DNA of 64,000 bases from Candidatus Omnitrophota bacterium (lineage in GTDB: Bacteria > Omnitrophota > Gorgyraeia > Zapsychrales > JANLHA01), in the NCBI GenBank assembly GCA_029560465.1, contig JAKQKX010000062.1, positions 3,836 through 67,835 of the forward strand, given 5' to 3'. Below the pieces are notes generated by a model. It was not told where the DNA came from and did no database searches. It saw nothing but the letters and a program-made list of their open reading frames with translations. The translations under genes and the position numbers were made by a program. Shown piece after piece: positions 13,863 to 32,095 of this stretch. Position 1 is the stretch's first letter. Every line of letters starts with the position of its first letter.

Positions 13863-14258
13863 ATGAAAAAGACTATAAATATTATTTTAATAATTATAAA
13901 TATTATAGGGTTCACGCCATGGGTTGCTGCTGGAGAATCCCGGGGGGATTATGTAAAAAAGGAATATTATGATAATGGGAACCTGAAGCTTTATTTGAAA
14001 TTTAAAAACGAGCGGATCGTTCGTAAAAAAGCTTTCTACCGCAACGGCCGCGTTAGGGAGGATTGGGTTTACCGTGACGGGGAGCTGCTGCGCATTGCCC
14101 ACTATTATGAGAGCGGGCGTTTATATAGTGTGTGGACGAAGAAATCGGGGGTGACGAAGTATTATGATTCGAATGGCCGGTTACGGACCGCAGTTGACCT
14201 GCGTCCTGAAAATTTGAATTCGGGTCTTCCTTCCACGTTTATTTTTTCCGGCCCTTGA
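13863..14258 (+). CDS. MORN-repeat (YwqK-like) secreted/lipoprotein
   Basis: Signal peptide, repeated YxNGxL(K/R) units (YYDNGNLKLY, FYRNGRVRED, YYESGRLYSV, YYDSNGRLRT). Confidence 0.6.
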   Translation: MKKTINIILIIINIIGFTPWVAAGESRGDYVKKEYYDNGNLKLYLKFKNERIVRKKAFYRNGRVREDWVYRDGELLRIAHYYESGRLYSVWTKKSGVTKYYDSNGRLRTAVDLRPENLNSGLPSTFIFSGP

Positions 14259-14326
14259 GGAGTGGCGTTTGCTGTCTTCCTGAGGTGAAGGTTTGATAAA
14301 TCAGGTGATTATGAAGGGATCGGGAG

Positions 14327-15670
14327 ATGTCTTTTGGGCTTCTAGGGGTGGTGTTTTCGTTTATTTTTTTTGATGCCGTTTTTATTAAGAAACAGGACCC
14401 GGTGCTTTATCAAAAATGTGTCCGGTCAGGTTTTTGGCCGGTCGCAGCCTATGGTGTCCTGGTGCTGATGCTTTTTGTGTTATCCAAGCGATGGGAGGAC
14501 CTCCCGGTTTACGGGTTTCTTTTTGTCCTTCCGGTTTACTTGTTCAAGCGTTACGGGTTTCTTAGGAGATTAAACCCGGCCCGCAGGGACCCGCAGGTCT
14601 TGGGCCTCGGGCTTTCCCTCACCCTGGATGCGTTCAACATGGCGCTGATTTGGGCTGCGGTCATGTCTCTTTTGACCATGGGATTAGAGTTTTTTTCGAG
14701 CCTTTACCCTCAAATGCAATCTGATCTCGGGGAGGTTGTATTCATTTCTGGGCTGTCGCCACTTTTTCTTTTATGGTTTATTAACAAAAGCATCCGGAAG
14801 TACCGGGATATTTCTTTTAGAGAAATCCTTGGCCTGCAGCGCCAGGGCCTTCCCTTGTGGAGGCTGATCGGCGTCCCGTTCCTGGCCGGCATCGGAATGG
14901 CGGCGGTTTCCAGTATGATGATCCATTCCCGGGAGGCTCAGCCGGCGACTCCGTTGACCCGGATGGTGGAATCGACGACATCACCGTGGATATTTTTGTC
15001 ATTACTTGTGGTTGCGGTGTTTATGGCGCCTTTTTTGGAGGAAATTATTTTCCGTGGATACCTTTATTATCTTGTCGAGAAGATAAAAGGGAAAAAAACG
15101 GCGGTCATCCTTATCGCGTTCCTTTTTGGCCTCCTGCATGTCGAACAGTACTGGGGCGATTGGACCGCGATCACGATGGTGGCTATCCTGGGCGTTTTGC
15201 TGACCTTACAACGGATGTGGACGCGTTCCTCTATCCCTGGGGTTATTACGCATTACGTTTATAATGGGGCCATGACGGTCTTGTCCGTCCTGGTTTTTAT
15301 GACCAGTTATCCGAGTTATTATGAATTCCAGACAAAGTTTCCCGAGTTGACTTTTCAGGAGAAAGAAACGCTGCTTAAAAAGAGCATGGAGCAGTCCCCG
15401 GGATTAGCCGGTCCTTATAACGATTTGGCCTGGATTTACGCCGAGCAAAATATACATCTGTCCCGGGCCTTGGAGTTGGCGGACCGGGCTTTGGCCCTGG
15501 ATCCGGATAATTACGCGTTTTTGGACACGAAAGCGGAGGTCCTGTATAGATTAGGACGGGTTGATGAAGCTGTGGCTATTGCCGAGACGCTGGTACGGGA
15601 ATATTCTGCCAATGCGTATTCTCAGCAGCAATTGGATAAATTTAAGTCGGGGTTGAAAGAAGAGGAATAA
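14327..15670 (+). CDS. CPBP-family (CAAX/Abi) intramembrane metalloprotease fused to C-terminal TPR domain
   Basis: Motif 1 EEIIFRG, motif 2 FGLLH, motif 3 HYVYNG within TM region; C-terminal TPR-like repeats (DLAWIYAEQN..., AFLDTKAEVLYRLGRVDEA). Confidence 0.7.
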   Translation: MSFGLLGVVFSFIFFDAVFIKKQDPVLYQKCVRSGFWPVAAYGVLVLMLFVLSKRWEDLPVYGFLFVLPVYLFKRYGFLRRLNPARRDPQVLGLGLSLTLDAFNMALIWAAVMSLLTMGLEFFSSLYPQMQSDLGEVVFISGLSPLFLLWFINKSIRKYRDISFREILGLQRQGLPLWRLIGVPFLAGIGMAAVSSMMIHSREAQPATPLTRMVESTTSPWIFLSLLVVAVFMAPFLEEIIFRGYLYYLVEKIKGKKTAVILIAFLFGLLHVEQYWGDWTAITMVAILGVLLTLQRMWTRSSIPGVITHYVYNGAMTVLSVLVFMTSYPSYYEFQTKFPELTFQEKETLLKKSMEQSPGLAGPYNDLAWIYAEQNIHLSRALELADRALALDPDNYAFLDTKAEVLYRLGRVDEAVAIAETLVREYSANAYSQQQLDKFKSGLKEEE

Positions 15671-15671
15671 C

Positions 15672-17246
15672 ATGCTGAAAATTTTTTTAAGGACGGGACT
15701 TATGGTATGCATTTTTGTAACGGGAGTCTGGGCGGAAGAACCTGGTGGCCCTATTGCCGGGCCTCCTTCGGAGGGGACGGCGGCCGCGGCGCTGGACGCG
15801 CGCCCGGCAGAACCCGCCGGAGAAAGAGAGCCGGGATTATCCTTAGAGTCCACGCGGGAATCCTTTGTGATTGAAATCCGAATCCCAGAAAGCCCTCTGG
15901 ACCCCGATGCTGTCCCGGTCGTTCCGAGGGTAGCCTCCCCGACCCAGAAGATCCTTCCGGAAGTGGATTTTCATCAGAGCCCTTTTCCAGACGCTTTGCG
16001 GGTTATCTCTGAAGGAAGTGGGGTGCCGATTGAGGGCGCGGACGCTTTATCGGGAACGGTCACCCTGTGTTTGCGGGAGATATCTTTTGAGCAGCTGTTA
16101 TTTTTACTTATGAAAATGAGTAAGGGGGCTTTTGTGTTTGAAGGCCAGAATGTCCGTGTTATGACTTCCGACGCGTATGAAATTAAGTACGGGCAGCCTT
16201 TTGCGCCGGAAATAGATGTTGCTGTCATGCCCTTGCGTCACCGGACGGTTAAAGACATAAAAGAGAATTTGGAGCAGTTGGAAAGCCTGAAAGGCCATTT
16301 GTTCATGGACGAGAAGAATCAACAGTTGATCGTTTTGGACCGGCAGGACCCTATGGAACAGATGATGGCGCTGCTGAGGTCTTGGGATATGCCTCCTTTG
16401 ACGACGAAAACGTTTCCTTTGCAGAACCTTAAACCGGAGACTGCGGCGGAAAGGCTGTCGGTTGTGTTAACGGAAAATGTCGGGACGGTGACTGTGAATT
16501 CGGAAACCCGGCAAGTGACCGTGAGGGATGCGACGGCGAATTTTCAGAAGATTGAGACATTCCTTCAAGCGCTGTCCCAAGCTCCCGAAATCGTGTGGCG
16601 GCTTCAGATGTCGAGGATTCAACTGAACGAAGAGCATCAAGACGGGATTGATTGGGAGGCGATTGTCTCAGAATACCAGAAGGCTGGCATTTTGGGGTAC
16701 AAAGTGGGCCTGCCTCCTGAACAGAACCATTTGAGCGTCGGGACGATCACCCAAGAAGATCTGCCGGTGCTCAAAGACGCTTTGGACGCGGCGGGACAAC
16801 TGATCGATCTTTACGACATGACAGAAGGGGCTGATTTTAACAATGAGATAACTTTTGTTTTGGATACGATGCAGAACCCGAAAAAATTCCGGGACCCTGA
16901 GGGGCTCGCCTTGACGCTCAAGGTGCGTTTGAAAAAGGCCGACAGGGAAAAGTATGTGGTCCAGGTGAACCCGGATTTGACCTGGTTAGCCGACAATGCG
17001 CCGGCAGTCCAGCCGTCCTCGGTGGAGACTTTTACCCCTCAGGATTCGATAGCGGTCCTGTTAAGAAAACATGACGTTATCGTCCTGGGTGGGCTATTGA
17101 GGGAAAAAGAATTGGAACGGACATCTAAAATTCCGTTGCTCGGGGATTTGCCTTTCCTGGGTTTCATTTTCCGTTCCGAGAACCGGCTGATTTTACGTAC
17201 GGAATACATTATTTTCTTGATCCCTGATTTTCCGGAATTGCCTTGA
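15672..17246 (+). CDS. Secretin-family outer-membrane channel protein, short paralog (GspD/PilQ-like)
   Basis: C-terminal secretin signature IPLLGDLPFLGFIFRSENRLILRTEYIIFLIP; paralogous to 28304-30079 (QMSRIQLNEEHQDGIDWEAIV vs IEAKILQVVLSDQHKFGVDWEAVV). Confidence 0.65.
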   Translation: MLKIFLRTGLMVCIFVTGVWAEEPGGPIAGPPSEGTAAAALDARPAEPAGEREPGLSLESTRESFVIEIRIPESPLDPDAVPVVPRVASPTQKILPEVDFHQSPFPDALRVISEGSGVPIEGADALSGTVTLCLREISFEQLLFLLMKMSKGAFVFEGQNVRVMTSDAYEIKYGQPFAPEIDVAVMPLRHRTVKDIKENLEQLESLKGHLFMDEKNQQLIVLDRQDPMEQMMALLRSWDMPPLTTKTFPLQNLKPETAAERLSVVLTENVGTVTVNSETRQVTVRDATANFQKIETFLQALSQAPEIVWRLQMSRIQLNEEHQDGIDWEAIVSEYQKAGILGYKVGLPPEQNHLSVGTITQEDLPVLKDALDAAGQLIDLYDMTEGADFNNEITFVLDTMQNPKKFRDPEGLALTLKVRLKKADREKYVVQVNPDLTWLADNAPAVQPSSVETFTPQDSIAVLLRKHDVIVLGGLLREKELERTSKIPLLGDLPFLGFIFRSENRLILRTEYIIFLIPDFPELP

Positions 17247-17305
17247 AGGGGCGTTACCGGCCGTATGCTTTTTCCCTGGACCTGATCCTGTCAACACGGA
17301 TAGCT

Positions 17306-19255
17306 ATGAGAAACGTTTTAGAAATTATAATACGCGTTTCCTCTCAACGGCAGGGATTCGTTCTCCTTGTCCTGGCCTTCGCGTTCACGGCGGTTATTTA
17401 CAGGCCGGTGATGCCGGGCGAGTTCGTGTGGGATGACCAGGGGCATTTTGAGTCCAATCCGTTGATCCGCCGGTTGACGGTCTCCCGGGTGGGGGAGATC
17501 CTTTCATCAACAGTTTATGATATATACATTCCGTTGACCATGCTTTCGTTCGCGCTGGAGTATCCTTTCTCTCGCGGGTCTCCGGCGGTTTCCCGCATTA
17601 ATAATTTATTCCTTCATGGGGGTGTCCTTGTCCTGGTTTATTGTTTGGCCCTTCAGGCTGGTGTTACGGAACGGGCCGCGGGCATGGCGGCGTTTATTTT
17701 TGGGATCCATCCGATGCATGTCGAAGCGGTGGCCTGGATCAGCGCCCGGAAAGATGTTTTGAGCACGTTTTTTTATTTCTGGGCGCTTCTTCAATACATG
17801 AGGTATCTCCGGACCCGTGAACGGGGCCGGTACCTTTTGACGTTGTTTTTCGGGCTGTTAAGCATGCTGGCAAAACCGATGGCGGCTAGCCTGCCGGTCG
17901 CCTTGTTCGTCTGTGACAGCTTCACTGGCCGGCGGCTGACCCGGCTGTCTGTCCTGGAGAAGCTCCCTTTGGCCTTGATGCTGTTCCCCCTGGCGTGGTT
18001 CACCCTTTCCCGAAACTTAGGGCAGGGCACGGCTCCTTTGCCGGTTTCGATTTTGACCTGGTTTTGGACGTTCATGTTTTATCTGCGGAAATTTTTTATC
18101 CCTTTTAACCTGTGCCCGCTTTATGATTGGCCGGGGCCCGTTTCTTGGCCGCAGGAGGCATACAGGAACGCCCTGTTGGCCGGCATGGCGTTAGGGGGGA
18201 GTGGGTATCTTTTAAGAAAAAGAAAGTGGTTTTATTTTCCCGTGATGTTTTACGTGGCGACGATCTTTCTCGTCCTGAGGACCAGCCCTCATGGCGTGGG
18301 GCTGACCCCTGTCGCCGACCGGTATATGTATTTACCCAGCTTGGGATTCTGTTTGGCTCTGGGCGCGGCATATGACCGCCTGTCGCGCGCCGTTGAGAAT
18401 AAAGGGCGTGGATATTTTTTGGGAACGCAGGCTGTCGTCGGCGCAATTGCGGGCCTCCTGGTGTTCTCGGCTTTTCACCAGGCCTTGATCTGGAAGGACG
18501 GCTATTCCTTGTGGGGGTATGTGCTGAGACGCGACCCAGGGAATCCCGTCGCCCATGGCAATCTGGGCTTGGCGTTTCTTCGCGATGGGGACAAAGAATC
18601 GGCCCGAAAGCATTTTTTGTCTGCCGTCCGGCTTCATTCCATGGACGCCCAGAATTATAATAATCTCGGGAACCTGTTTTATGAAGAAGGCCGGCGGCAG
18701 GAAGCCAAGCAGTGTTTTGAGATGGCGTTGCGCCTGAATCCGGCTCACGCGCAGGCACACAGTAATTACGGGGTCGTGCTCATGGAGGGAGGGGACTATG
18801 CCCGCGCGCAAAGATTTTTGGCGCGCGCTGCGGCCCTGTCCCCCGGGCAGCCGGATATATTTAAAAATTTGGGGAATGTTTATCTGCTTCAAAATAAAGA
18901 TGTTTTGGCGGAACACGCGTATTTGCAGGCGCTCGCTTTAAACCCGTCTCTTTTGTATGTGCACAGTGTTTTGGCGGACATGTACCTAAAGAAAGGGGAT
19001 TTGGATAAAGCCGCCGTTCATTTTTCTGAAATTCTGATCTATGAGCCGGACAATGCCCGCGTGCATAATAGCCTCGGCGCTATTTATATAAAGAAATTTG
19101 ATCCCCGGCGAGCGGTGTACCATTTCCGTGAGGCTTTGCGGATCGACCCGCATTACGGGAACGCCCGGAACAATTTGAATATCCTCCTCGCGCAGACCGC
19201 CCTTCCCCCAGAAGAGGGGAACGCGGGCTGGACGATGGGGAAGCCCTGGGAATAA
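17306..19255 (+). CDS. GT-C fold membrane glycosyltransferase-like protein (TMTC/PMT-like) with C-terminal TPR repeats
   Basis: >10 TM helices; acidic DD motif in first loop (FVWDDQGHF); 7+ TPR units at C-terminus (NLGLAFLRDGD, NLGNLFYEEGR, NYGVVLMEGGD, NLGNVYLLQNK...); alternative TTG start at 17243 overlaps secretin stop. Confidence 0.55.
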   Translation: MRNVLEIIIRVSSQRQGFVLLVLAFAFTAVIYRPVMPGEFVWDDQGHFESNPLIRRLTVSRVGEILSSTVYDIYIPLTMLSFALEYPFSRGSPAVSRINNLFLHGGVLVLVYCLALQAGVTERAAGMAAFIFGIHPMHVEAVAWISARKDVLSTFFYFWALLQYMRYLRTRERGRYLLTLFFGLLSMLAKPMAASLPVALFVCDSFTGRRLTRLSVLEKLPLALMLFPLAWFTLSRNLGQGTAPLPVSILTWFWTFMFYLRKFFIPFNLCPLYDWPGPVSWPQEAYRNALLAGMALGGSGYLLRKRKWFYFPVMFYVATIFLVLRTSPHGVGLTPVADRYMYLPSLGFCLALGAAYDRLSRAVENKGRGYFLGTQAVVGAIAGLLVFSAFHQALIWKDGYSLWGYVLRRDPGNPVAHGNLGLAFLRDGDKESARKHFLSAVRLHSMDAQNYNNLGNLFYEEGRRQEAKQCFEMALRLNPAHAQAHSNYGVVLMEGGDYARAQRFLARAAALSPGQPDIFKNLGNVYLLQNKDVLAEHAYLQALALNPSLLYVHSVLADMYLKKGDLDKAAVHFSEILIYEPDNARVHNSLGAIYIKKFDPRRAVYHFREALRIDPHYGNARNNLNILLAQTALPPEEGNAGWTMGKPWE

Positions 19256-19287
19256 CGCCGGGGTTGTTTATAAGGACAGGAACGCAC

Positions 19288-20997
19288 ATGAATGGGAGTT
19301 ATCGGAAATCATTTGGCCAGCTGTTAGTCGAGAAGGGCGTGATCAGCCAGGCCCAGTTACAGGAAGCCCTGGACAAGCAGATCCCACGGGAAGAATTGTT
19401 CCTCGGGACGTTGTTGCGCCTTGGGTTTATCTCCGATGAAAGGAGGGTTTATCCTCTTTTGGCGGACCATCTGAAGGTGGAATACCTGGACTTGAAATCC
19501 TCGCCGATTGACCGGGACGTCCTTCCTCGGGTTCCGGTCATGATGGCCACCCATTATAAGGTGTTCCCGGTCCGTTACGACGCGGGGGCGGGCGTGTTAA
19601 CGGTCGCGACGGCTTATCCGCAAAATATTTTTATCCTGGACGGGCTGCAGATGGCCCATCCGGGGAGGATCAAGGCGGTCCTTTCCCGGGAGGCGGATAT
19701 CCTGGAGGCGATACGGGAATACTACGGAGTCGGGGCTGAGACGATCGCCCAGATGAAGGGCGTGTTGCCCGGCGAAGGGACTCCGGAGGGGAACGTTGAA
19801 GACATCGAGCAGATCGATTCCGATGCTTCGATCGGGAAGTTTATCAATCAGATCCTTTTGGAAGCGTATCGGACCCGGGCCACGGATATTCATATTGAGC
19901 CGTATGAGCGGGATTTAAAAATCCGTTGCCGTATCGATGGCGTCCTTTATGATACCAAAGTCCCGATGAATATTTGGAATTTTAAGGAAGCGATTAATTC
20001 CCGGATTAAGATCATGTCCAACCTCAATATCGCGGAAAAACGTCTTCCTCAGGACGGGCGATTCAAGGTGAAAGTGGGGGGCGTGAGCCTGGATTTGAGG
20101 GTGTCTTTCCTGCCGACGCAGTATGGCGAAAGCGTGGTCATCCGGATTTTGAGCTCCAACCGGCTATATAATATGGATGAACTCGGGCTGAACGCCCGGG
20201 AACAGGAACTCCTGGAGCGGCTTATCCGCAAACCCCACGGCATCGTATTTGTGACCGGCCCGACGGGCAGCGGGAAGACGACGACGCTGTATTCTTGCCT
20301 GGCCCATGTCAACACGGCGGACAAGAAAATCATCACCATCGAAGACCCAGTGGAGTACCAGCTCAACGGCATCACTCAAATTCAAATTAACCCGGCGATC
20401 CACTTGACGTTCAGCCAGGGGTTAAGGTCGATGCTGCGCCATGATCCTGACATCATGATGGTGGGAGAAGTCCGCGACCGGGAGACCGCGGAGATCGCGA
20501 TTCAAATCGCCTTAACCGGGCATTTGGTTTTTTCAACCCTGCACACCAATGACGCCGCCAGCGGCATCACCCGGCTTGTTGATATGGGCGTGGAGCCGTA
20601 TTTGATTTGCAGTTCGGTGGAATGCTTTATCGCGCAAAGGCTGGTGCGGCTTTTGTGCCCTTTGTGTAAAAAGGCTATCCCGGTCACGGAAGATATCCTT
20701 CGGGTTTTGAGGGAGGATGTTCCGGAGGCGCGGCCGCAGACGTTGTTCGAAGCCCAAGGCTGCGAGGCCTGTCATGGGACCGGGTACCACGGCCGGGAAG
20801 GGATTTACGAATTTTTGTCACTCAACGACGCAATCCGGGAGATGGTCCTGGCCCGGGCGACGTCCGCTCAAATAACCAGAAAGGCCGTTGAGCAGGGGAT
20901 GAAGACGCTCCTCAAACACGGATGGGAAAAGGTTTTAGCCGGGAAAACCACTCCAAGCGAGATTATGCGGGTCACGAAGGATGATATGAACTCCTGA
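19288..20997 (+). CDS. gspE: Type II secretion/type IV pilus assembly ATPase GspE/PilB family
   Basis: N-terminal GSPII_E N domain, Walker A GPTGSGKTTTLY, Asp box, His box, tetracysteine motif CPLC...CEAC. Confidence 0.9.
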   Translation: MNGSYRKSFGQLLVEKGVISQAQLQEALDKQIPREELFLGTLLRLGFISDERRVYPLLADHLKVEYLDLKSSPIDRDVLPRVPVMMATHYKVFPVRYDAGAGVLTVATAYPQNIFILDGLQMAHPGRIKAVLSREADILEAIREYYGVGAETIAQMKGVLPGEGTPEGNVEDIEQIDSDASIGKFINQILLEAYRTRATDIHIEPYERDLKIRCRIDGVLYDTKVPMNIWNFKEAINSRIKIMSNLNIAEKRLPQDGRFKVKVGGVSLDLRVSFLPTQYGESVVIRILSSNRLYNMDELGLNAREQELLERLIRKPHGIVFVTGPTGSGKTTTLYSCLAHVNTADKKIITIEDPVEYQLNGITQIQINPAIHLTFSQGLRSMLRHDPDIMMVGEVRDRETAEIAIQIALTGHLVFSTLHTNDAASGITRLVDMGVEPYLICSSVECFIAQRLVRLLCPLCKKAIPVTEDILRVLREDVPEARPQTLFEAQGCEACHGTGYHGREGIYEFLSLNDAIREMVLARATSAQITRKAVEQGMKTLLKHGWEKVLAGKTTPSEIMRVTKDDMNS

Positions 20998-21022
20998 CGG
21001 CCAGGCCGGCTTGAGATACGGT

Positions 21023-22246
21023 ATGGGACAATTTTTTTATAAAGCCAAGCAGGGCCCTTCCAAAATCATTGAAGGGGTCATTGAAGCGGATCATGAAGCG
21101 ATGGCGGTCAGCCGCATCCTTCGGATGGGGTACACGCCTTTGAATGTGCGGGCGGCGCCAGCGGCGGGCAAGAAAATCAAGGGCGCTGGCCTGCCGATGT
21201 CGGCGGGCATCAGGGGTCGGCCCCAGGATGTCATGATCTTCACCCGGCAGATGAGCGACCTTGTGAGCGCCGGGGTGCCGGTTTTAAGGGCGTTATCTCT
21301 TGTGGATAAGCAGCTTAAGAACAAAAGGCTCAAAGATGCCGTCGGGCAAATGATCGCCGTGGTTGAAGACGGGGGCCCGTTATCCTCGGCCTTGGCCAAG
21401 TTCCCGGGGATTTTTTCCCCGTTATATATCAATATCGTCCGTTCGGGCGAAGTCGGCGGCAACCTGGAGGTTGTCCTGGCCAGGTTATCGGATTTTATAG
21501 AAAAGGATTATGATATCCAGGCGCAGGTCAAGACCAGTTTGATGTATCCGGGGCTGATCCTTTTTGTCGGAGGGGCCACAATATTTGTCATTTTGACGTG
21601 GGTCATCCCGAAGATCTCAACGATCTTCATTGACATGAACGAATCCCTGCCTCTGGTCACAACGGCGCTTTTGGCGGTCAGCCGTTTCCTGGCCCGGTTC
21701 TGGTGGGCGCTGGGGGCTGTCTTCCTTCTGGCCGTGGTTCAGTTGAGGAGGGCCTACGCGACCCCTGAAGGGAAACTGTGGCTCGACAGCTTGAAGCTGA
21801 AGATCCCGGTCGTCGGGCCGTTTATCCAGGACGTGGAAGTCGGACGCTTCGCCCGGACGCTTGGCACGTTGCTCGCCAACGGTGTCACGGTTGTCACGGC
21901 TATTGACACGGTTTGCCAGGCCGTTGATAATGAAATTTTTAAACAGGACGTCCTTCGGATGAATCGTCTGCTGACCGGGGGGGGGAGTTTAACGCAGGTG
22001 ATGCAGTCTTGCGCGTTCTTCCCGGAAACGGCTGTGAATATGGTCGCCATCGGGGAAGAAACCGGTCAGCTGCATCAGGGGTTGCTGAAACTGGCGGCTT
22101 ATTATGAACACCAGTCAGAGCGGACCATGAAACGGGTGACCAGCCTTATAGAGCCCGTGCTGATTCTGGTGATGGGGGTTTTTATCGGGTTTATAGTCTT
22201 GGGGATGCTGATGCCGATTTTTAGAATGAATCTTATAATCCGATAA
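21023..22246 (+). CDS. gspF: Type II secretion system inner-membrane platform protein GspF/PilC
   Basis: Two GspF repeats, N-terminal FFYKAKQG..IEGVIEA signature, three TM segments. Confidence 0.85.
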   Translation: MGQFFYKAKQGPSKIIEGVIEADHEAMAVSRILRMGYTPLNVRAAPAAGKKIKGAGLPMSAGIRGRPQDVMIFTRQMSDLVSAGVPVLRALSLVDKQLKNKRLKDAVGQMIAVVEDGGPLSSALAKFPGIFSPLYINIVRSGEVGGNLEVVLARLSDFIEKDYDIQAQVKTSLMYPGLILFVGGATIFVILTWVIPKISTIFIDMNESLPLVTTALLAVSRFLARFWWALGAVFLLAVVQLRRAYATPEGKLWLDSLKLKIPVVGPFIQDVEVGRFARTLGTLLANGVTVVTAIDTVCQAVDNEIFKQDVLRMNRLLTGGGSLTQVMQSCAFFPETAVNMVAIGEETGQLHQGLLKLAAYYEHQSERTMKRVTSLIEPVLILVMGVFIGFIVLGMLMPIFRMNLIIR

Positions 22247-22282
22247 GACACACGGGATTGCCCAGAAGAGGGGGATGGAGTC

Positions 22283-22723
22283 ATGACGCAGAAAAGATGT
22301 GGCGGGGCCAGGGGGTTTACCCTTGTGGAGATTCTCCTGGTGGTTGTTATCATCGGGGTTTTGGCGGCCATGGTGGTGCCGAATTTTTCCGGGAAAAAAT
22401 CAAAGGCCCAGCAGGCCGCGGCGGTGGCGGACATCGAGGCCAATCTGGCCGTCGCGCTGGACATGTATGAGCTGGATGTCGGGCGGTTCCCCACCACGGA
22501 ACAGGGCCTGAAAGCTTTAATTGAAACCCCGTCTACGCCTCCGGTCCCGGAGACCTGGGGCGGCCCGTATCTTAAGAAGAAAACGATTCCGCTCGACCCT
22601 TGGGGGCAGGAATATAATTACAGGTCCCCGGGGACGCAGAATCAGGAAAGTTATGACCTCTTTTCTTACGGCGCCGACGGTGTGGAAAGCAATGATGATA
22701 TTGCCAATTGGCAAAAGGAATAG
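22283..22723 (+). CDS. gspG: Type II secretion major pseudopilin GspG
   Basis: Prepilin leader + GFTLVEILLVVVIIGVLAAMVVPNF; C-terminal DPWGQEYNYRSPG...YDLFSYGADG...ANW is diagnostic of GspG. Confidence 0.9.
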   Translation: MTQKRCGGARGFTLVEILLVVVIIGVLAAMVVPNFSGKKSKAQQAAAVADIEANLAVALDMYELDVGRFPTTEQGLKALIETPSTPPVPETWGGPYLKKKTIPLDPWGQEYNYRSPGTQNQESYDLFSYGADGVESNDDIANWQKE

Positions 22724-23243
22724 GGGCGGGCCTTGTCTGGGGCATGGGAATGGCCGTGCTTTCACGCTGATCGAGATGGTGTTGGCCGTTTCCATTATTG
22801 CGGTTCTGGCCGGCGTGGCGCTTCCTCATTTCGGCCGGTCTTGGTCGCGGATTAAACTTCGGAATGCCGCTGATGAGTTATCGTATATGATGCGTTTCGC
22901 TCAGAGCCAGGCCATCCGTAAGGGGGCGCATGTCAGGTTGACGTTTGCGCGGGACGCGCATACCTATTATTTGCAACAGGGGGCCCTGGAGACCGGAGAA
23001 ATCGTGTCCTACGAGTCTTTGTCGGGGCGGTGGGGCCGGAATGTTCCCGTTCCACAGGATATCGAGGTGGCGGTGAGCGCCGATGGAGTGGTTTTCGCGC
23101 CGGATGGCCGTATTGCCCCTTTCCAATGCCAGTTTTGCCGGCGGGTGGATTGTTATCTTGTGTCAACGGCGGGCTCCCGGGGGATGGTTGATGTCTGGTT
23201 TTTTCAGCGGTCCCTTGGCCCAGCGGGGCAGGAGTATCGATGA
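22692..23243 (+). CDS. gspH: Minor pseudopilin GspH-like
   Basis: AFTLIEMVLAVSIIAVLAGVALP prepilin-type N-terminus; start overlaps gspG by ~32 nt; leader unusually long (~22 aa). Confidence 0.55.
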   Translation: MMILPIGKRNRGGPCLGHGNGRAFTLIEMVLAVSIIAVLAGVALPHFGRSWSRIKLRNAADELSYMMRFAQSQAIRKGAHVRLTFARDAHTYYLQQGALETGEIVSYESLSGRWGRNVPVPQDIEVAVSADGVVFAPDGRIAPFQCQFCRRVDCYLVSTAGSRGMVDVWFFQRSLGPAGQEYR

Positions 23244-23665
23244 AGGACAAAAGAGTTATGACGCGCGCTTCTGGTCGCCGAGGAGTGTTGTCTCCATCGG
23301 GGGTCGTCCTCCTGGAGGTGCTGTTGGCCATGGCGGTCTTTTCCATAAGCATTGTGTTCCTGATCAATTCCCTGGCACAGAGTTTCCGGGCCACGGTCTA
23401 CAGCCGGGATTACACAGAGGCCCTTTTTGAGGCGGATAACCTTATGGCCCATATCTGGGCCAGGGGCATGATGGAGCGACAGAATCAGGAAGAAGGTGCG
23501 CTCCCGGCGAGGCCGGGGGACTTTAAGTACCGGATTCGGGCGTCCCAGAGCGCGGATAAGAATGTGGGTGAATGGTTGAATGAATTTTTTGTGGAAGTGT
23601 CGTGGATATTGGGAGGCAAGAAACGTGCGTTTTCTTGGCGCGGCTTTATTTTTGACGCGTCATAA
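23240..23665 (+). CDS. gspI: Minor pseudopilin GspI-like
   Basis: GVVLLEVLLAMAVFSISIVFL prepilin-like N-terminal helix; ATGA overlap with upstream stop. Confidence 0.5.
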   Translation: MKDKRVMTRASGRRGVLSPSGVVLLEVLLAMAVFSISIVFLINSLAQSFRATVYSRDYTEALFEADNLMAHIWARGMMERQNQEEGALPARPGDFKYRIRASQSADKNVGEWLNEFFVEVSWILGGKKRAFSWRGFIFDAS

Positions 23666-23678
23666 AGACGTTTTTATT

Positions 23679-24431
23679 ATGGTAGCGGGTTCCGCGCTCC
23701 CGGCCCGGGAGGGCCGGTTCCCGCGGGCGCGAGGCTTTACGTTCATTGAAATACTCTTGGCTTTAATGCTGGTGTCTGTTTTAGCCGGGAGCCTGTATGC
23801 CACATACGCCGCGGGGATACAGATTCATAAACGCGCTCAGAAACTAGAACAGTGGTCCCGTTCGGCGTCCTGGTCTTTTGACGCGATGGCCTTAGATTTG
23901 GAAAATATGTTGCCGTATCACACTCCGGAGGGATCGGCCGCGGCCCCTGATGATTTTTTTGAAGGGACGTCAACCGGGTTGAAACTGCTGTGTGCCGGGG
24001 AAGGGGGGTTAAAAGAGGTCAGGTATTTTCTGAAAGACGCCGATTACGGGACCGTGCACACCGTGATCGTGGGGGCCCGGTCCCGCGCGGTTAATGGGCC
24101 TGTCACGGTCGAGACGAGCGAACAGGGCCGGGTACAATTTCTTGTCCGGGAAGAAAGGGTGTTTCCGTCCGTGGAAGGGGCGGCCGAAATGCCTCCGGGG
24201 GGGGAAGCGGAAATCCTTAACCGCTATGTTTTGAAAGACAGCCTGAAATTTTTCTTCGCGGGAACCTCCCGGGCCGCGGCCCGGGAGGATATCCCGTGGG
24301 AAACAACGTGGAAAAAGCCGGCTTTCCCGTCTTTGGTGCGCGTTGAGATGACGCTGGTCAACCCCCAAGAGCCGGAAGAAACGGTTCGCCTGCAAAAGGA
24401 TGTTTTTGTCCCTTCCGGCGCGTGGAAATAA
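23679..24431 (+). CDS. gspJ: Minor pseudopilin GspJ-like
   Basis: GFTFIEILLALMLVSVLAGSLY prepilin-like N-terminus, ~250 aa. Confidence 0.5.
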   Translation: MVAGSALPAREGRFPRARGFTFIEILLALMLVSVLAGSLYATYAAGIQIHKRAQKLEQWSRSASWSFDAMALDLENMLPYHTPEGSAAAPDDFFEGTSTGLKLLCAGEGGLKEVRYFLKDADYGTVHTVIVGARSRAVNGPVTVETSEQGRVQFLVREERVFPSVEGAAEMPPGGEAEILNRYVLKDSLKFFFAGTSRAAAREDIPWETTWKKPAFPSLVRVEMTLVNPQEPEETVRLQKDVFVPSGAWK

Positions 24432-24477
24432 TCCGGCGTGGCCGGGGGTGTTTTTGGGAAGGGCAAGGGGGATTGTT

Positions 24478-25647
24478 ATGAAAGAAAAAGGCGTCCGCCC
24501 GCATATTAAGGAATGGGAGAAGGGGCGCCCCTGGAAAAATCTGCAGGGGCCGGGGGCGGGATTTTTGAAGGATCAGTCCGGCGTTATATTGATTGTCGTC
24601 CTTTGGATCGTCGCGATCCTTTCTGTTTTTATCCTGGGATTGGGCCGCCGGGCCAGTGTTGACCTGGCGCTGACCCAATATCAGAGGGAAAAGTTTAAAG
24701 CCGGGCACACGGCCATCGCCGGGATTGTTTATGCCATGGCGTGTATCCGGAAAGACAGCCTTGCCCCGGAAACCCGCATCTTTGATACGCTTTATCAGCG
24801 GGGCGTGAAATTGGATGAAAATCAGGCCGTGGAAGACCTTTTCAGCCAGGTCTCTTCCGGCGACGGATATTTTGAAATCCGGCATTGGGAAGGGGGCGAG
24901 GACGGGGCCGCAGAGAGGGTGTTCGGGTTTGAAGACGAAGAGAGCAAAATTAACGTGAACTTGCTTTCTCCTCAGAATTATAAAGTGCTCAGCGCGTTGA
25001 TCACTTATTTCGGTTTTGAGGAGGATGCCGCCGACGTCATCGCGTCCGCGGTTATAGACTGGAAAGACAGTGACGACAACACCTTTAACGCGCCATACGG
25101 GGCGGAGAGGGATTTTTACCAGCATCTGGGGCCTCCCAGGGACTGCAAGAATTATCCTTTTGAAAGCGTCGAGGAAATGCGTTTGGTGCGGGGGATGACG
25201 GACGAGATTTTTAAGAAGATCAAGCCTTATATCACGGTTTATCCGTCATCCGGCCGTTTCCAGGTGAACCTGGAGACAGCGCCCCGTCCGGTCCTGACCG
25301 CTTTGGCCCGGGCCGTGGCCGGCAACCAGACCAACACGGAAAAGGAGGATGCCGACGGGGTGGTGGAGAAGATCCTGCAAAACCGGCTGGGAGAGGACGG
25401 GCGCGCTGCGACGGCGGATGACAGGATTTTTGATATCAATCAGCTTTCCCTTAACACCGAAGAACGGATTGTCGCTTTGATGATGTATCAGAACATGGCC
25501 AGGACCTCTGATTATTTTCGTGTTTCGGTGAACGGGTTCTCCGGCCCTGGCGGGGCGCTGTCCAAGATTGAAGCGGTGGTTTCCAGGTCCAACCTGTCGA
25601 TCCTGTACTGGAAAAGGCACGAACCTTTTGCACGAGCGGAAGAATGA
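24478..25647 (+). CDS. gspK: Minor pseudopilin GspK-like
   Basis: SGVILIVVLWIVAILSVFILG N-terminal helix, ~390 aa with HhH-like central region, position after GspJ. Confidence 0.6.
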   Translation: MKEKGVRPHIKEWEKGRPWKNLQGPGAGFLKDQSGVILIVVLWIVAILSVFILGLGRRASVDLALTQYQREKFKAGHTAIAGIVYAMACIRKDSLAPETRIFDTLYQRGVKLDENQAVEDLFSQVSSGDGYFEIRHWEGGEDGAAERVFGFEDEESKINVNLLSPQNYKVLSALITYFGFEEDAADVIASAVIDWKDSDDNTFNAPYGAERDFYQHLGPPRDCKNYPFESVEEMRLVRGMTDEIFKKIKPYITVYPSSGRFQVNLETAPRPVLTALARAVAGNQTNTEKEDADGVVEKILQNRLGEDGRAATADDRIFDINQLSLNTEERIVALMMYQNMARTSDYFRVSVNGFSGPGGALSKIEAVVSRSNLSILYWKRHEPFARAEE

Positions 25648-27095
25648 GTAATAAATATAAGACTGTTTTATTGATAACGGATACAGACATAAAAATTCTG
25701 CAGGCCAAAGCGCAGCGGGGGGGCGCGGAGCCTTTTTATTCTTTTGTTAAAGCGCGGGCGCACCCGTCGCCCGAGTTTTTACAATCAGCCCTTCGTGAAG
25801 GGCTCCCCGCTTCTTTAAAGCGGATAGGGCAGGTTGTGTTGCTTATTTCCCGGCGGCAGGTTTTGATGTTGCCGGCACGCTTCCCTTCCCATTCCGGGGC
25901 GGAAATCCAGCGCATGGTCGATTTGCAGGTCAGCCATCTGACTCCCTTTGCCCGGGAGGAGATCGTAATCTGTCACTCGGTGGTTGACCGGGAACCCGAT
26001 GGATATGCGCGGGTGCTGATCCAGGCGGCCCCTCAAGATCTTGTTTTGAGCTATCTTCGCCTCCTTGCCGGCAGGAACGTGCCGTGTCATCAAGTGATCC
26101 TGAGCTCGGTCGGGGTTGGGGCATGGTACAGGAAAAATGTGTTGGCCCCGGGAGAGGACGCCGGCCGGGTCGTGGCGATCTTGGATGTGGACCGCCGGGG
26201 ATCAGAGCTTTGTTTCCTGCGGGACGACACGCTTTTGTTTTCCAGGTATTTGCCGTTCGGGCATGAGGAAGAAAGCCCGGAGGCGATGTCCTCCTTGGCG
26301 GAGCAGGTCCTTTTAACAGTCGAAGCCTATCGTCGCGAATGTATGGGCGGCCCGATATCCCGCTGCATTATCATGTCAGATGCGGATTTGAGCCGGGTGA
26401 AAGATCTTATCAACGGCCTTGATATCGCGCCGGCGGTAGACCTTGTGTCTGTGCGCCAGCGGACTTTGGGCAAGATGCGGAAGCCCCCGGCCGGCCTTCT
26501 TGCTGAGCCCGTGTCCTGGACCGCCCTCCTGGGAGCGCTTTCCGACGGGCTACCTAAAGAGGCGAACCTGCTCCCGGGGGAGATCATCCGGATTAAGTCG
26601 TCGACGCTTAAACGCCGGGCAAGGATCCGCTTTGTTGCCGTTCTGCTGGGCACGTTGGGGGTGCTGTGGGGAGCCCTCAATCTGGATAATTTCCAGAAAG
26701 AGCGGAAGCTGGCCCATCTGAAAGATGCCCTTCAGGCGCAACAGGTGAGCGTCAGGAAAGCGCAGGAGAATATCGAGGCGATCGAAGCGTTACAGGTTAA
26801 GTTGCGCAGCCGGGTTGTTTTGGTAGACATCCTCCGGGGGCTTTACGAAAAAGTGCCGGAACCTATTTCTTTGCGTTCGTTGCAGCTTGACCATAAAGGG
26901 ACGGTCATCCTGCAGGGGTTTGGGGAATCACGAAGCGCGGTGAACCAATTTCACAATAATTTGGTCAGCTCCGCGATGTTTCAGAATGTCGCTTTGGAAT
27001 ATGCCACGGAACGGAAACAATATAAAGAAGAATATGTCGAATTCAAGATTTTATGCCAGTTATCCCGGGACGAGAAGAAGAGGGCCGAGCCATGA
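25644..27095 (+). CDS. gspL: GspL-like (PilM-like cytoplasmic domain + TM + PilN-like periplasmic coiled coil)
   Basis: N-terminal actin-like/PilM-like region, single TM RIRFVAVLLGTLGVLWGALNL, coiled-coil C-terminus; gene order. Confidence 0.5.
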   Translation: MSNKYKTVLLITDTDIKILQAKAQRGGAEPFYSFVKARAHPSPEFLQSALREGLPASLKRIGQVVLLISRRQVLMLPARFPSHSGAEIQRMVDLQVSHLTPFAREEIVICHSVVDREPDGYARVLIQAAPQDLVLSYLRLLAGRNVPCHQVILSSVGVGAWYRKNVLAPGEDAGRVVAILDVDRRGSELCFLRDDTLLFSRYLPFGHEEESPEAMSSLAEQVLLTVEAYRRECMGGPISRCIIMSDADLSRVKDLINGLDIAPAVDLVSVRQRTLGKMRKPPAGLLAEPVSWTALLGALSDGLPKEANLLPGEIIRIKSSTLKRRARIRFVAVLLGTLGVLWGALNLDNFQKERKLAHLKDALQAQQVSVRKAQENIEAIEALQVKLRSRVVLVDILRGLYEKVPEPISLRSLQLDHKGTVILQGFGESRSAVNQFHNNLVSSAMFQNVALEYATERKQYKEEYVEFKILCQLSRDEKKRAEP

Positions 27096-27625
27096 TGCAT
27101 TTTCAGTTTAGCGCGAGGGAAAAGAAAGTCCTTATCGTTTCTCTGGCGTTGCTCTCAGTCTATTTGGTTAAAACATGGGTTGTGGAGCCCGTTCAAACCC
27201 GGGCTGAGTGGCTTGACCGGCAAATCCGGAATACGGAACAGAAACTGTTAACCGCGTCCCGCACGATCCGCAAGAGCCAGGTTGTCCAGCGCCGGTATAA
27301 GGTCTTGCTGGACAATTACCGGCAGAATCGGTCCAACGAAGAGGTGATGTCTGGAATTTTGACTGAAATTGAAGCCATCGCCGCGGGTAACAGTTTAAGC
27401 ATTTCTGATCTTAAGCCGAATAAACCCAAAATAATTAATTATTATAAAGAGTTTTCTGTGAGCCTGGTTCTGGAGGGGGACTTCACCCAGGTGATGGAAT
27501 TTATTTTTAAATTGCAAAAAGAGCCCTATGATTATTTTGTGGATGAAGCCGAAATCAGTAAACATTCTCCGCGGACCAGCGGGCTGCGGTGCCGTTTTGT
27601 CTTAAGCAAAGTCTTAATTCCTTGA
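27092..27625 (+). CDS. gspM: GspM/PilO-like bitopic protein
   Basis: Short cytoplasmic N-terminus, TM VLIVSLALLSVYLV, coiled coil then ferredoxin-like region; ATGATG overlap with gspL stop. Confidence 0.45.
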   Translation: MMHFQFSAREKKVLIVSLALLSVYLVKTWVVEPVQTRAEWLDRQIRNTEQKLLTASRTIRKSQVVQRRYKVLLDNYRQNRSNEEVMSGILTEIEAIAAGNSLSISDLKPNKPKIINYYKEFSVSLVLEGDFTQVMEFIFKLQKEPYDYFVDEAEISKHSPRTSGLRCRFVLSKVLIP

Positions 27626-27769
27626 CATAATTTCATATATGCTTGACACCTTGTGACACTTATGACAGAGTACTCATAGAATTGGCCGGAGGAGCAAAAA
27701 AGATAAAAATGGCTGAAATTGTTAATTCCGGGTGCGACGCTGGCGGCGCAGGGGAAGTGCAGGGGCGGG

Positions 27770-28255
27770 ATGCTTAAGAAGATAACACAGGTTCTGCAGG
27801 TTGTGGCTATCATGGTGCTCGCGTACTGTGCCGCGCGCTGGTATGCGTTTACAGAACCGGAGCCCCTTCCGGTTTTGGACGGCGGTCGTTTTGAGCAGAA
27901 AACAGGTGTCCGGGACGACGTTGCCCTGAACTCCCGGGCGTCCTTCGCAGAGTACCGCCAGGTTTTTTCTCAAAGAGAGATTTTTGTGATGCCTTACGCG
28001 AAAGAGGCTCCGGCCCCGAAGGCCCAAGCCGTTGAATCCCCGGTCGCGCAAAAAGCCCATTTGGTCGATTTCCGGCTGCGGGGGGTTGTGCTGGATCAGC
28101 AGCCGCAGGCTATTGTAGAAGACTTGAGCAACAAACAGACATTGTTCCTGTCCCCGGGAGATTTGCTCGGGCAGGGCACTTTAAAGGAAGTCCGGGAAGA
28201 CCGTATTATTGTGGTGGTTCATGATGCGTCGTTGGAACTGCTTATGGAAGATTGA
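27770..28255 (+). CDS. GspC/PilP-like periplasmic T2SS component (putative)
   Basis: N-terminal TM VVAIMVLAYCAARWY, C-terminal beta-rich region; located immediately upstream of the secretin. Confidence 0.4.
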   Translation: MLKKITQVLQVVAIMVLAYCAARWYAFTEPEPLPVLDGGRFEQKTGVRDDVALNSRASFAEYRQVFSQREIFVMPYAKEAPAPKAQAVESPVAQKAHLVDFRLRGVVLDQQPQAIVEDLSNKQTLFLSPGDLLGQGTLKEVREDRIIVVVHDASLELLMED

Positions 28256-28303
28256 GGGGGCTGGCCGGCGCGCCGACAAGAACTGAGGGGAGCCTGAAGG
28301 GTT

Positions 28304-30079
28304 ATGATAAATCTTGATGGATATAAGCATATCGCGTTGATGGGCGGGGTTTTTTTCTGCTTGCTCATTCCCGCCGGGATAGCGGCCGAACGCCAGGACA
28401 TTGTTCATCAAGCGTTGAATGATTATGAATCTCTCCCTGTTGCCCCCGGACCTGTGACGGCGGGCTTAAATTCGGGTCCCCATGCCTCGGGGCAACCGGA
28501 CCGTTCTGGGCCCATGAAGAACGACGTGCTCCGCCGGCAGCTGGTCAAGATAGTCCATGGCCTGAACCCCCAGGATTTTTCAGAAGACGAAACGTACGCC
28601 GAGGTGATCGAAATCCGGCGTCCTGGGAACGAGGCCGTCCCGGAGCCTCCGGAGGAGGATGTTCCGGACGGGGGCAGGATTGATGTCCTCCAGATGAAAA
28701 ATGTCGACATTATGGATATTTTGAAGCTGATCTCCCAGAAGAGCGGGGTGAACATCATCACCGGCAAGGGCGTCAGCGGGAATGTTTCGATTTATCTGAA
28801 AGATGTGCGCTGGAAGGATGCCTTGCGGATTATCCTCGATTCGAACGGGCTTGCCTATAAAGACGAGGCAGGGATTTTGCATGTGATGCCGGCCGCTGAA
28901 TTCGAAAAACGTTACGGATACCGCTTCGGCGGGGATTTGAAAACCAGAATTATTCATCTGGATTATGCGGATGTCCAGGATATGGTGACGTTGTTAACGC
29001 AGATGAAGAGTTATCTGGGCAAGATCATCGCTGACGCGAAGTCTAATACCCTTGTTTTGACGGACTCGGGGGATGTTATTGCCGAGATGGAGCGGTTGAT
29101 TAAGCAGATTGATGTGCCGGTTATGACAAAAGTCTATGAGCTGAATTATGCCCAGGCGGAGGACCTGTCTCAGAAAGTCGCGGAGGTCTTGACGAAGAAT
29201 GTCGGCCGCGTGAAGCACGACGTGCGGTCCAACAAACTTATTGTCCGGGACACCCCCGTGTCTTTGGCGGAGATAGACAAACTTGTCCATTCATTTGACG
29301 TGCGGGAACAGCAGGTCCTGATAGAAGCCAAAATTTTGCAGGTCGTTTTGAGCGACCAGCATAAATTCGGGGTGGACTGGGAAGCGGTGGTCACGAAATA
29401 TCACAATCTTAATTTTAAGAATGATTTCAGTATTTTAAGCAGCAATGAAAAAAGCGGCACGGTGACGATTGGGACGCTGGCGAGCGATGATTACACGGCG
29501 CTGTTGGAGGCGCTGAAAACTGCCGGGGAGACTAATATCCTTTCTTCGCCCCGGATCACGGCCTTGAACAAGCAGGAGGCCAGGATTTTGGTTGGCTCCC
29601 AGGAACCTTACGTGACAACGACAACAACGACCCCGGCCAGCGGGCCGACGACAACGGCGGAAAGCATCAGTTTTATTGACGTGGGGATTAAGCTGTATGT
29701 GACCCCAACGATCCACCGGGATGATTTTATCACGATGAAGATCCGGCCGGAAGTCAGTTCCGTGACCCGGACGCTTACGACCAGTAATAATAACACCATT
29801 CCGGTCGTTGAAACTTCGGAAGCGGAAACCACGGTGATGATTAAAGATGGGGTGACGGTCATTATCGGGGGGCTTATCAAAGAGGAGACCATCAATTCCG
29901 AGAATAAAGTTCCGCTTCTGGGAGACATCCCCTTCCTGGGGCTTGCTTTTCGCAACGAAGACCATTTGACTCGAAAAACAGAAATCGTAATTTTCTTGAC
30001 CCCCCGGATTATGAGTGGGGATGTGTCCACGGCTCTGTCCCCGGAAGATTTTTCTTCCAGAGCGCCGGCGTCTTTTTAA
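28304..30079 (+). CDS. gspD: Type II secretion secretin GspD-like
   Basis: Secretin N domains + secretin domain with VPLLGDIPFLGLAFRNEDHLTRKTEIVIFLTPRI; contains poly-Thr tract VTTTTTTPASGPTTTAES. Confidence 0.85.
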   Translation: MINLDGYKHIALMGGVFFCLLIPAGIAAERQDIVHQALNDYESLPVAPGPVTAGLNSGPHASGQPDRSGPMKNDVLRRQLVKIVHGLNPQDFSEDETYAEVIEIRRPGNEAVPEPPEEDVPDGGRIDVLQMKNVDIMDILKLISQKSGVNIITGKGVSGNVSIYLKDVRWKDALRIILDSNGLAYKDEAGILHVMPAAEFEKRYGYRFGGDLKTRIIHLDYADVQDMVTLLTQMKSYLGKIIADAKSNTLVLTDSGDVIAEMERLIKQIDVPVMTKVYELNYAQAEDLSQKVAEVLTKNVGRVKHDVRSNKLIVRDTPVSLAEIDKLVHSFDVREQQVLIEAKILQVVLSDQHKFGVDWEAVVTKYHNLNFKNDFSILSSNEKSGTVTIGTLASDDYTALLEALKTAGETNILSSPRITALNKQEARILVGSQEPYVTTTTTTPASGPTTTAESISFIDVGIKLYVTPTIHRDDFITMKIRPEVSSVTRTLTTSNNNTIPVVETSEAETTVMIKDGVTVIIGGLIKEETINSENKVPLLGDIPFLGLAFRNEDHLTRKTEIVIFLTPRIMSGDVSTALSPEDFSSRAPASF

Positions 30080-31244: not shown

Positions 31245-31285
31245 AAAGTATAGCCCCCTGGGCCCCTGAAACAAAGCGAGAAGCC

Positions 31286-32089: not shown

Positions 32090-32095
32090 TGAGGT

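Follow-up and report, generated by a model that had tools for sequence, protein, structure and literature searches.

Secretins have been treated as gated pores of which each machine possesses one. Where several paralogs serve type II secretion system (T2SS)-type machines in a single genome, as do XcpQ, HxcQ and XqhA in Pseudomonas aeruginosa and GspD-alpha and GspD-beta in E. coli, they have canonical gates and are encoded each in its own operon or as an orphan. None of these is known to open the operon of its own machine as a conserved first gene with degenerate gate motifs and a CPBP-family protease as its partner. That arrangement is described here for a 64,000-nucleotide stretch of a Candidatus Omnitrophota bacterium (GenBank assembly GCA_029560465.1, contig JAKQKX010000062.1, positions 3,836 to 67,835 of the forward strand), which is referred to as the window and to which our view of this genome is confined. 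A T2SS-like operon in the window is bracketed by two secretins, a short atypical one at its 5' end (sSec) and a canonical one at its 3' end (lSec) (Table 1). In the clade to which the short secretin belongs, the secretin fold has been kept while the gate consensus has disappeared, and a link to an intramembrane protease has been formed.

Omnitrophota occur widely and are often host-dependent or predatory-like; interactions between cells are commonly ascribed to their secretion and pilus loci. Paired secretins were not found described in the literature on this phylum, in which preprints mention T2SS- or Tad-like loci only beside giant genes, nor were duplicated secretins within a T2SS described in a survey of type IV filaments. 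In Myxococcus, the T2SS delivers MYXO-CTERM cargo to the cell surface after this cargo has been trimmed by the myxosortase MrtX, likewise a CPBP protease (PMC11980579). The top homologs are found in metagenome-assembled genomes of Candidatus Omnitrophota.

The short secretin and its clade

sSec and lSec are 26% identical over 484 residues, and because an alignment of this length is obtained at E = 4e-49, their paralogy cannot be put down to chance. The AlphaFold2 model of sSec, a monomer computed from an input alignment that contained canonical secretins, has a mean predicted local distance difference test (pLDDT) score of 82 and lays out a signal peptide, a disordered linker (residues 20-72), an N0-like domain (94-165), two N-domains (182-302) and a ten-strand core (307-519). 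All 50 of its 50 best Foldseek matches in the PDB are secretins, with InvG at the top (E = 1e-17) and PulD, GspD, XcpQ, PilQ and also BfpB, pIV and RcpA among them. The original prediction, which had proposed two secretin paralogs at the ends of the operon, had raised the question of whether the first protein might lack a secretin barrel domain; hidden Markov model (HMM) and AlphaFold2/Foldseek searches both find the core fold, and the two brackets are true secretin paralogs. Its description of the N-domain region of sSec as abbreviated was mistaken. N0 and two Secretin_N domains are present in both proteins (residues 94-304 in sSec and 129-335 in lSec), and the 67-residue difference in length is instead spread over the N-terminal linker (∼35 residues), the gate region (∼15) and the C-terminal tail (∼21). 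Neither protein has an S-domain or an AMIN domain.

In the alignment, lSec, its orthologs and the outgroup GspD and PilQ sequences keep the gate consensus 'ILSSPRITALNxQEAxILVGSxEPYVT...DVGxxLxVTP'. This consensus, including the periplasmic gate-1 motif VGxxxP[YF] and the DVG...L.V.P segment after it, is absent from sSec and from every CPBP-adjacent secretin aligned, and the subclade to which the window's sSec belongs has undergone a further deletion of ∼22 residues in the gate-1 loop. The Pfam Secretin model is matched over positions 1-168 by lSec, over 70-165 by sSec, and over 108-168 and 55-168 by the secretins of two related loci, L012 and L006 (related loci are designated by L numbers throughout). 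The C-terminal motif KIPLLGDLPFLGFxFR is retained in all aligned secretins of both types, and in the sSec family it is conserved together with the signal peptide and the N0 domain, the near family sharing 40 invariant columns. As a separate observation, the gate-1 loop of the canonical clade (lSec residues ∼440-460 and orthologs) carries a conserved threonine run, PYVTTTTTTPASGPTTT, which is present also in operons without the GT-C/TPR gene described below.

sSec had been presented in the original prediction as an oddity of one operon; it belongs instead to a large, Omnitrophota-wide, gate-degenerate clade with CPBP as its steadiest neighbour. An exhaustive profile search returned 1667 representatives at E ≤ 1e-30. 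Among the best 146 representatives at 50% identity, 104 were of the atypical type (median length 501 residues) and 42 of the long type (median 590), and the canonical gate-1 regular expression matched none of the 104. The atypical family comprises at least 104 clusters at 50% identity. With the same profile, secretins of other phyla reached at most 134 bits, compared with 280-850 bits for Omnitrophota secretins. Within the atypical clade no NCBIfam model was passed, and the Pfam match was only partial. A tiny family, as a word-indexed search yielding ∼10 relatives would have had it, was rejected, as the exhaustive profile search yielded hundreds.

Neighbour-joining trees, which are distance-based and were built from 481-491 columns with 200 bootstraps, placed the Omnitrophota secretins in one monophyletic group (bootstrap 100). 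All CPBP-adjacent secretins, sSec included, fell into a single clade (bootstrap 99), its sister group being the clade of canonical T2SS secretins, and within the CPBP-adjacent clade the first secretins of bracketed operons formed a subclade (bootstrap 77). The long, operon-terminal secretins of the lSec type lie on short branches beside the CPBP-adjacent clade. On these trees, sSec goes back to an old duplication of the T2SS secretin within the phylum, after which its change was accelerated. A chimeric origin of the single-locus secretins by recombination between paralogs was set aside, since the gate region is atypical throughout and the divergence is too deep for such recombination to be detected.

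The steadiest genetic partner of the clade is the CPBP protease, usually with a tetratricopeptide repeat (TPR) tail. It is encoded directly upstream of the atypical secretin in ∼22 of the 28 loci with upstream sequence and is absent in six. In the window, the CPBP-TPR gene stops 1 nucleotide before the start of sSec, and its product has intact catalytic motifs (EEIIFRG, FGLLH and HYVYN, for EExxxR, FxxxH and HxxxN). Related loci were sampled from species-representative genomes, metagenomes and exact-protein look-ups and were annotated by BLASTP against the window proteins; the layout counts include some redundant metagenome contigs. Three layouts were found. In the first, a CPBP gene, a ∼500-residue secretin and an amidase gene follow one another without any T2SS genes (L006, L007, L012, L014, L015, L017-L020, L045, L066, L068, L072, L074 and L075), and in L002 sSec and the GT-C/TPR gene lead directly to the amidase. 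In the second, the bracket, CPBP and the first secretin are followed by an optional GT-C/TPR gene, the genes from gspE to the GspC-like one, the long secretin and the amidase; this is the layout of the window, of L055 and L056 (genomes of 3.36 Mb and 3.35 Mb), of L003, L004, L062 and L063, and of two divergent lineages without the GT-C/TPR gene, L057 and L061, whose GspF proteins are 49% and 43% identical, respectively. In the third, seen in L058 and L059, the T2SS genes are accompanied by a long secretin but no first secretin lies in the vicinity. In L009 and L010 the upstream sequence breaks off at gspF. In three loci that have the atypical secretin only, a gene for an N_methyl type IV pilin-like protein lies directly upstream of CPBP (L012, 8031-8573; L045, 7231-7707; L068, 3016-3495), a hint that CPBP and the secretin may belong with some filament system also where T2SS genes are not adjacent.

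Readings of the bracketed operon

lSec is the canonical secretin, covering the Pfam Secretin model from end to end and retaining both the gate-1 and gate-2 motifs shared with GspD and PilQ, and would in our reading be the T2SS channel. For sSec, we give an even chance to a second ring or port that assembles on its own, has a different gate and is used with the T2SS when both are present. In the mechanism proposed, the pseudopilus machine (GspE, GspF, GspG-K and the GspL, GspM and GspC analogues) would push folded cargo through the lSec channel, and the CPBP-TPR protein and sSec would make up an accessory envelope module, co-transcription with the T2SS being predicted in the bracketed lineages. 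By analogy with the myxosortase, the protease would trim a membrane-anchored cargo, or a component of the machine, at the periplasmic face. sSec would form its own homo-oligomeric outer-membrane ring with a shortened and differently gated inner barrel, and this ring could act as a second port or as a docking ring through the same N0/HR-domain interface. The GT-C/TPR enzyme would glycosylate a periplasmic target, its TPR part binding the substrate or a partner. Because the module persists without adjacent T2SS genes in most loci, it is not dependent on a cis-encoded machine.

Several observations weigh against assigning sSec to a second port of the T2SS. Neighbour-joining on deep, rate-heterogeneous sequences can misplace long branches, and the AlphaFold2 core of sSec may have been biased toward the canonical fold by the canonical secretins in its alignment. 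The window CPBP protein scores far below the cutoffs of sorting proteases (35 versus 75 for MrtJ and 27.7 versus 130 for MrtS), and a search of the window for cargo bearing a C-terminal sorting tag found none. T2SS operons without a nearby first secretin exist, as in the third layout, and most members of the atypical clade sit between a CPBP gene and an amidase gene with no T2SS genes between them; the atypical secretin therefore needs no cis-encoded T2SS and may serve another machine.

The alternative that survives best builds on this last point. In it, sSec would be the channel of a different type IV filament machine (a type IVa pilus (T4aP), a Tad pilus or a competence pilus) that is encoded elsewhere and works with CPBP, and its adjacency to gspE would be inherited synteny. 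The attachment of most clade members to CPBP rather than to T2SS genes is the main evidence in its favour, to which can be added the pilin-like genes just upstream of CPBP in three loci and the several pilus and secretion loci that Omnitrophota carry. What makes it doubtful, though deserving of real weight, is that the bracket layout, with all genes on the same strand and very short gaps, has been kept down to 43% GspF identity, which is longer than neutral synteny usually lasts. The atypical clade moreover descends from a secretin of a T2SS operon, not from one of PilQ or RcpA type, and no genes of another filament system are found in the window.

It is unlikely that sSec and lSec co-assemble into a hetero-oligomeric channel in which the mixing of subunits would tune gate size or pilotin-independent assembly. 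The two share the architecture of N0, two N-domains and core as well as the KIPLLGDLPFLGFxFR motif, and they are probably co-transcribed in several lineages. Their inner-barrel and gate segments, however, differ in both length and sequence, which would disturb a regular mixed barrel, and in many genomes the atypical secretin locus has no lSec nearby. No mixed secretin ring is known to us, and none turned up in the one search of the literature. A pilotin-like role for sSec, which the original prediction had also considered, does not fit a full-size secretin with a signal peptide, as opposed to a small lipoprotein.

Very improbable, in our judgement, is the view that the whole locus is a T4aP or generic type IV filament system with both secretins serving a surface pilus. 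Some members of the non-proteobacterial 'T2SS' do group with T4aP (Denise et al.), and several scores lean the same way. lSec passes the PilQ cutoff (TIGR02515, 292 versus 284) and fails that of GspD (TIGR02517, 281 versus 351); with N0, two N-domains and no S-domain, it is a complete secretin without being a GspD equivalog. The platform proteins score better with PilM, PilN and PilO models than with those of GspL and GspM, the PilM-PilN fusion matching GspL (TIGR01709) only at E = 7e-4 and the PilO/GspM-like protein matching GspM (NF040576) at E = 8e-4. GspE falls below both relevant cutoffs (575 with TIGR02533, cutoff 630; 549 with the PilB model, cutoff 675), and GspF reaches 356 with TIGR02120 (cutoff 424), its score with the PilC model being slightly lower. 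GspI, GspK, GspL and GspM are likewise below their equivalog cutoffs, which, together with the scores of GspE and GspF, argues against full T2SS membership.

Against a T4aP identity, the major subunit passes the GspG equivalog cutoff (Table 1) and contains the motif DPWGQEYNYRSPG...YDLFSYGADG that the original prediction had quoted as diagnostic. It is accompanied by the minor pseudopilins GspH, GspI, GspJ and GspK, the last of them without Glu5, and by a GspC-like protein whose HR domain, as a profile of 8 orthologs, matches GspC (3oss_C) at E = 3e-5 and PilP (3jc8) only at E = 0.078. The PilM and PilN parts are fused as in GspL, and this fusion is common to all related operons. The window contains no pilT, PilA-type pilin or PilY1 gene, and neither of its secretins has an AMIN domain; gspO and gspN are also not found within it. 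The operon, predicted from the outset to be Gsp-type rather than T4aP, is on these matches placed in the type IV filament superfamily as a T2SS-like system of Gsp type, though a divergent one, and its predicted function is secretion. Residues 17-59 of GspE match the model of an MshEN-type c-di-GMP-binding motif (NF053729) at 38.2 bits, against a cutoff of 38, and the machine may be regulated by c-di-GMP.

The last possibility, that sSec is a decaying, functionless duplicate (the decoy of the original prediction), is hardly credible: loss of the gate consensus, long branches and the frameshifted secretin of one related operon (L059), though that one is of the lSec type, would favour it, but the intact full-length open reading frames (ORFs) in all those clusters, the invariant columns of the near family, the confident AlphaFold2 fold of sSec and the conservation of its signal peptide, N0 domain and C-terminal motif leave it close to refuted.

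A wider proposal, speculative and rather doubtful, is that the ∼500-residue CPBP-adjacent secretins represent a new functional class. These would be outer-membrane rings with a reduced or absent canonical gate which, together with an inner-membrane CPBP-TPR protease, would serve specifically to export or sort surface proteins that have been processed and perhaps also lipidated or glycosylated. Such a route could work by itself or in connection with a Gsp-type T2SS. If a second, differently gated outer-membrane port did lie beside the T2SS, it would change how the export capacity of Omnitrophota is to be read, and the clade would offer a natural experiment on the purpose of the secretin gate. 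The clade can be annotated now: its members are ∼500 residues long, match the Pfam Secretin model only in its C-terminal part and are preceded by a CPBP gene.

Gene inventory and neighbourhood

Every gene that the original prediction had listed was recovered by ORF listing and HMM scans, on the + strand and in the place given to it (Table 1). Its single co-directional block is likewise observed, with the exception of the start at 15672: the unit begins upstream of sSec, with the CPBP-TPR gene. Junctions are operon-like, with the 1-nucleotide gap between CPBP-TPR and sSec, an overlap of 4 nucleotides between sSec and the GT-C/TPR gene, a gap of 8 nucleotides to gspE and further overlaps downstream. 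A consensus scan for promoters and terminators between 12000 and 31500 gave no usable boundary, the matches being scattered within genes.

Table 1. Genes of the bracketed operon and its immediate neighbours, in window coordinates.
Coordinates	Strand	Product	Evidence
12974..13744	+	Secreted Zn-metallopeptidase-like protein (Peptidase_Mx1-like)	Pfam Peptidase_Mx1 28 bits; signal peptide; HELYH motif
13863..14258	+	Small secreted MORN_2-repeat protein	Weak Pfam MORN_2 match; signal peptide
14327..15670	+	CPBP (Rce1-like) glutamic intramembrane protease with C-terminal TPR	Pfam Rce1-like 67 bits (cutoff 22.4); TPR
15672..17246	+	Short atypical secretin sSec, 524 aa	Pfam Secretin 52.1 bits (cutoff 27.5); two Secretin_N, 46.1 (cutoff 28.2)
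17243..19255	+	GT-C-fold membrane domain (~1-434) with TPR (~436-656), 670 aa	Pfam TPR matches; AlphaFold2/Foldseek fold
19264..20997	+	GspE/PilB-type assembly ATPase with N-terminal MshEN	Pfam T2SSE 449 bits; MshEN 56 bits
21011..22246	+	GspF/PilC-type inner-membrane platform protein	Pfam T2SSF 212 bits
22283..22723	+	Major pseudopilin GspG, 146 aa, site G|FTLVE	TIGR01710 157 bits (cutoff 88.85); Pfam T2SSG 113 bits
22692..23243	+	GspH-like minor pseudopilin, site A|FTLIE	Pfam GspH 26.2 bits (cutoff 21); N_methyl; putative start (mechanical ORF from 22521)
23240..23665	+	GspI-like minor pseudopilin, site G|VVLLEV	TIGR01707 38.9 bits, below cutoff 44.35; E = 9e-10
23679..24431	+	GspJ-like minor pseudopilin, site G|FTFIE	Position and N_methyl 25 bits; GspJ similarity weak; putative start
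24478..25647	+	GspK minor pseudopilin, site G|VILIVV, without Glu5	Pfam T2SSK_1st 78.7 bits (cutoff 26.2); NF037980 121, below cutoff 130; putative start
25644..27095	+	Fusion of PilM-like cytoplasmic and PilN-like transmembrane/periplasmic parts (GspL architecture)	Pfam PilN 41 bits (cutoff 22.8); PilM_2 25 bits
27092..27625	+	PilO/GspM-like bitopic protein	Pfam PilO 26.7 bits (cutoff 22); T2SSM weak; putative start at ATGA overlap (listed ORF from 27053)
27770..28255	+	GspC/PilP-like protein: one transmembrane helix and HR domain, without PDZ	Pfam T2SSC 24.3 bits, below cutoff 27 (listed ORF from 27719)
28304..30079	+	Canonical secretin lSec, 591 aa	Pfam Secretin 172 bits; two Secretin_N; weak STN/N0
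30147..31244	+	N-acetylmuramoyl-L-alanine amidase (Amidase_3)	Pfam Amidase_3 198 bits

Upstream of CPBP-TPR, the Peptidase_Mx1-like gene is syntenic in L001-L004, L056 and L062, and the MORN_2 gene precedes CPBP in L001-L004, L056 and L061. The Peptidase_Mx1-like gene is a possible member of the unit, and its product is a possible cargo. The sole candidate for a cargo with a sorting tag in the window, at 4974-6341, was rejected as a polytopic, transporter-like membrane protein.

The GT-C assignment of the 670-residue protein in the original prediction is supported by its fold. The AlphaFold2 model has a pLDDT of 90.6 and a predicted template modelling score of 0.89, and the top Foldseek matches of the membrane domain are STT3, PglB, Pmt4, AglB, ArnT and EmbB (E from 1e-5, template modelling score ∼0.5); residues D64-D65 are invariant in 57 homologs. 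Searches of this domain with Pfam HMMs (only PMT_2, E = 0.93) and against PDB sequences gave no significant match, and the GT-C identity is thus one of modelled fold, not of family membership. Its TPR part gives sub-threshold NCBIfam matches to PilW (102, cutoff 154) and Tgl. The family combining GT-C and TPR is much expanded in Omnitrophota, with at least 459 hits at E ≤ 1e-5 that are typically ∼40% identical; the 3.36-Mb genome from which L055 comes encodes another copy (P0234). The copy adjacent to the secretin is confined to the subclade of the window, in which it is a later insertion.

Downstream, the last secretin is followed by Amidase_3 in almost every related locus. The string of secretin, Amidase_3, glutamate racemase, PTPS (queD), queC, queE and queF is conserved across very divergent Omnitrophota, and it is kept whichever secretin type adjoins the amidase; the part after the secretin occupies 30147-34342 in the window and is found in L002-L023, L045, L055-L058, L061 and L064-L078. 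It may be plain housekeeping synteny or may link secretin insertion with peptidoglycan remodelling. For the amidase itself housekeeping synteny is probable, and it is not claimed as part of the machine.

Related operons show some peculiarities of their own. In L058, which is without gspE, two extra genes separate the GspM-like gene from the GspC-like one (16580-17655), one of the MerR family and one of AAA_22/ATPase_2 type, the latter recalling GspA/ExeA-type ATPases. In L059, glycoside-hydrolase genes at 57-8123 (two apiosidase-like genes and one combining CBM96 and GH26) precede the operon running from gspE to the secretin and may encode cargo, and a frameshift or an assembly error divides the secretin of lSec type between two ORFs (17460-19269). 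L060 contains two tandem filament-system operons (1-19732), each with its own secretin (587 and 614 residues), the first of which is placed by the tree elsewhere than with the Omnitrophota secretins.

Elsewhere in the window, GC skew is positive in every 2-kb bin from 1 to 64000, and the + strand carries the majority of the long ORFs; the entire window is therefore probably on a leading strand. A 672-residue protein encoded at 51853-53871 (+) has Glu/Lys/Gln-rich, coiled-coil-like repeats after an N-terminal hydrophobic segment and no Pfam match, and it accounts for a local anomaly in composition (GC 0.44, GC skew 0.31, AT skew 0.34). Tandem paralogous B12-binding radical SAM proteins of 648 and 664 residues are encoded at 47095-49041 and 49097-51091 (+).

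Comparison with known systems

A GT-C domain with a TPR tail is known from the eukaryotic TMTC O-mannosyltransferases, and TfpW of P. aeruginosa is a GT-C enzyme that modifies pilin. The 670-residue window protein resembles these in its GT-C fold, in the DD pair in its first loop, in its C-terminal TPR array and in having its gene in a filament-system operon, as tfpW does. Unlike them, it has no significant match to any Pfam GT-C family and is one of many Omnitrophota paralogs. A TPR protein encoded beside a secretin also recalls the TPR pilotins and assembly factors (PilF/PilW/Tgl and TadD), but both TPR domains of the window, that of the CPBP protease and that of the GT-C protein, are tails of polytopic inner-membrane enzymes rather than small outer-membrane lipoproteins.

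Like the myxosortase MrtX and the related sorting proteases MrtJ and MrtS, the window CPBP protein belongs to the CPBP/Rce1-like glutamic intramembrane proteases, and its motifs are intact. It differs from MrtJ and MrtS in scoring below their cutoffs, in its C-terminal TPR, in the absence of tagged cargo from the window and in its genetic tie to a secretin.

The closest overall likeness is to the Gsp T2SS of Proteobacteria, with which the window shares GspE, GspF, GspG, GspH/I/J/K, a GspL-like fusion, a GspM/PilO-like protein, an HR-domain GspC-like protein and a secretin with N0, all in one operon that has no retraction ATPase. Unlike in that system, most window components score below the NCBIfam equivalog cutoffs, the GspC-like protein is without a PDZ domain, and lSec has N0 and two N-domains rather than four, lacks an S-domain and scores slightly better as PilQ. 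A further difference is that the same transcription-style unit here also holds a gate-degenerate second secretin, a CPBP-TPR protease and a GT-C/TPR protein.

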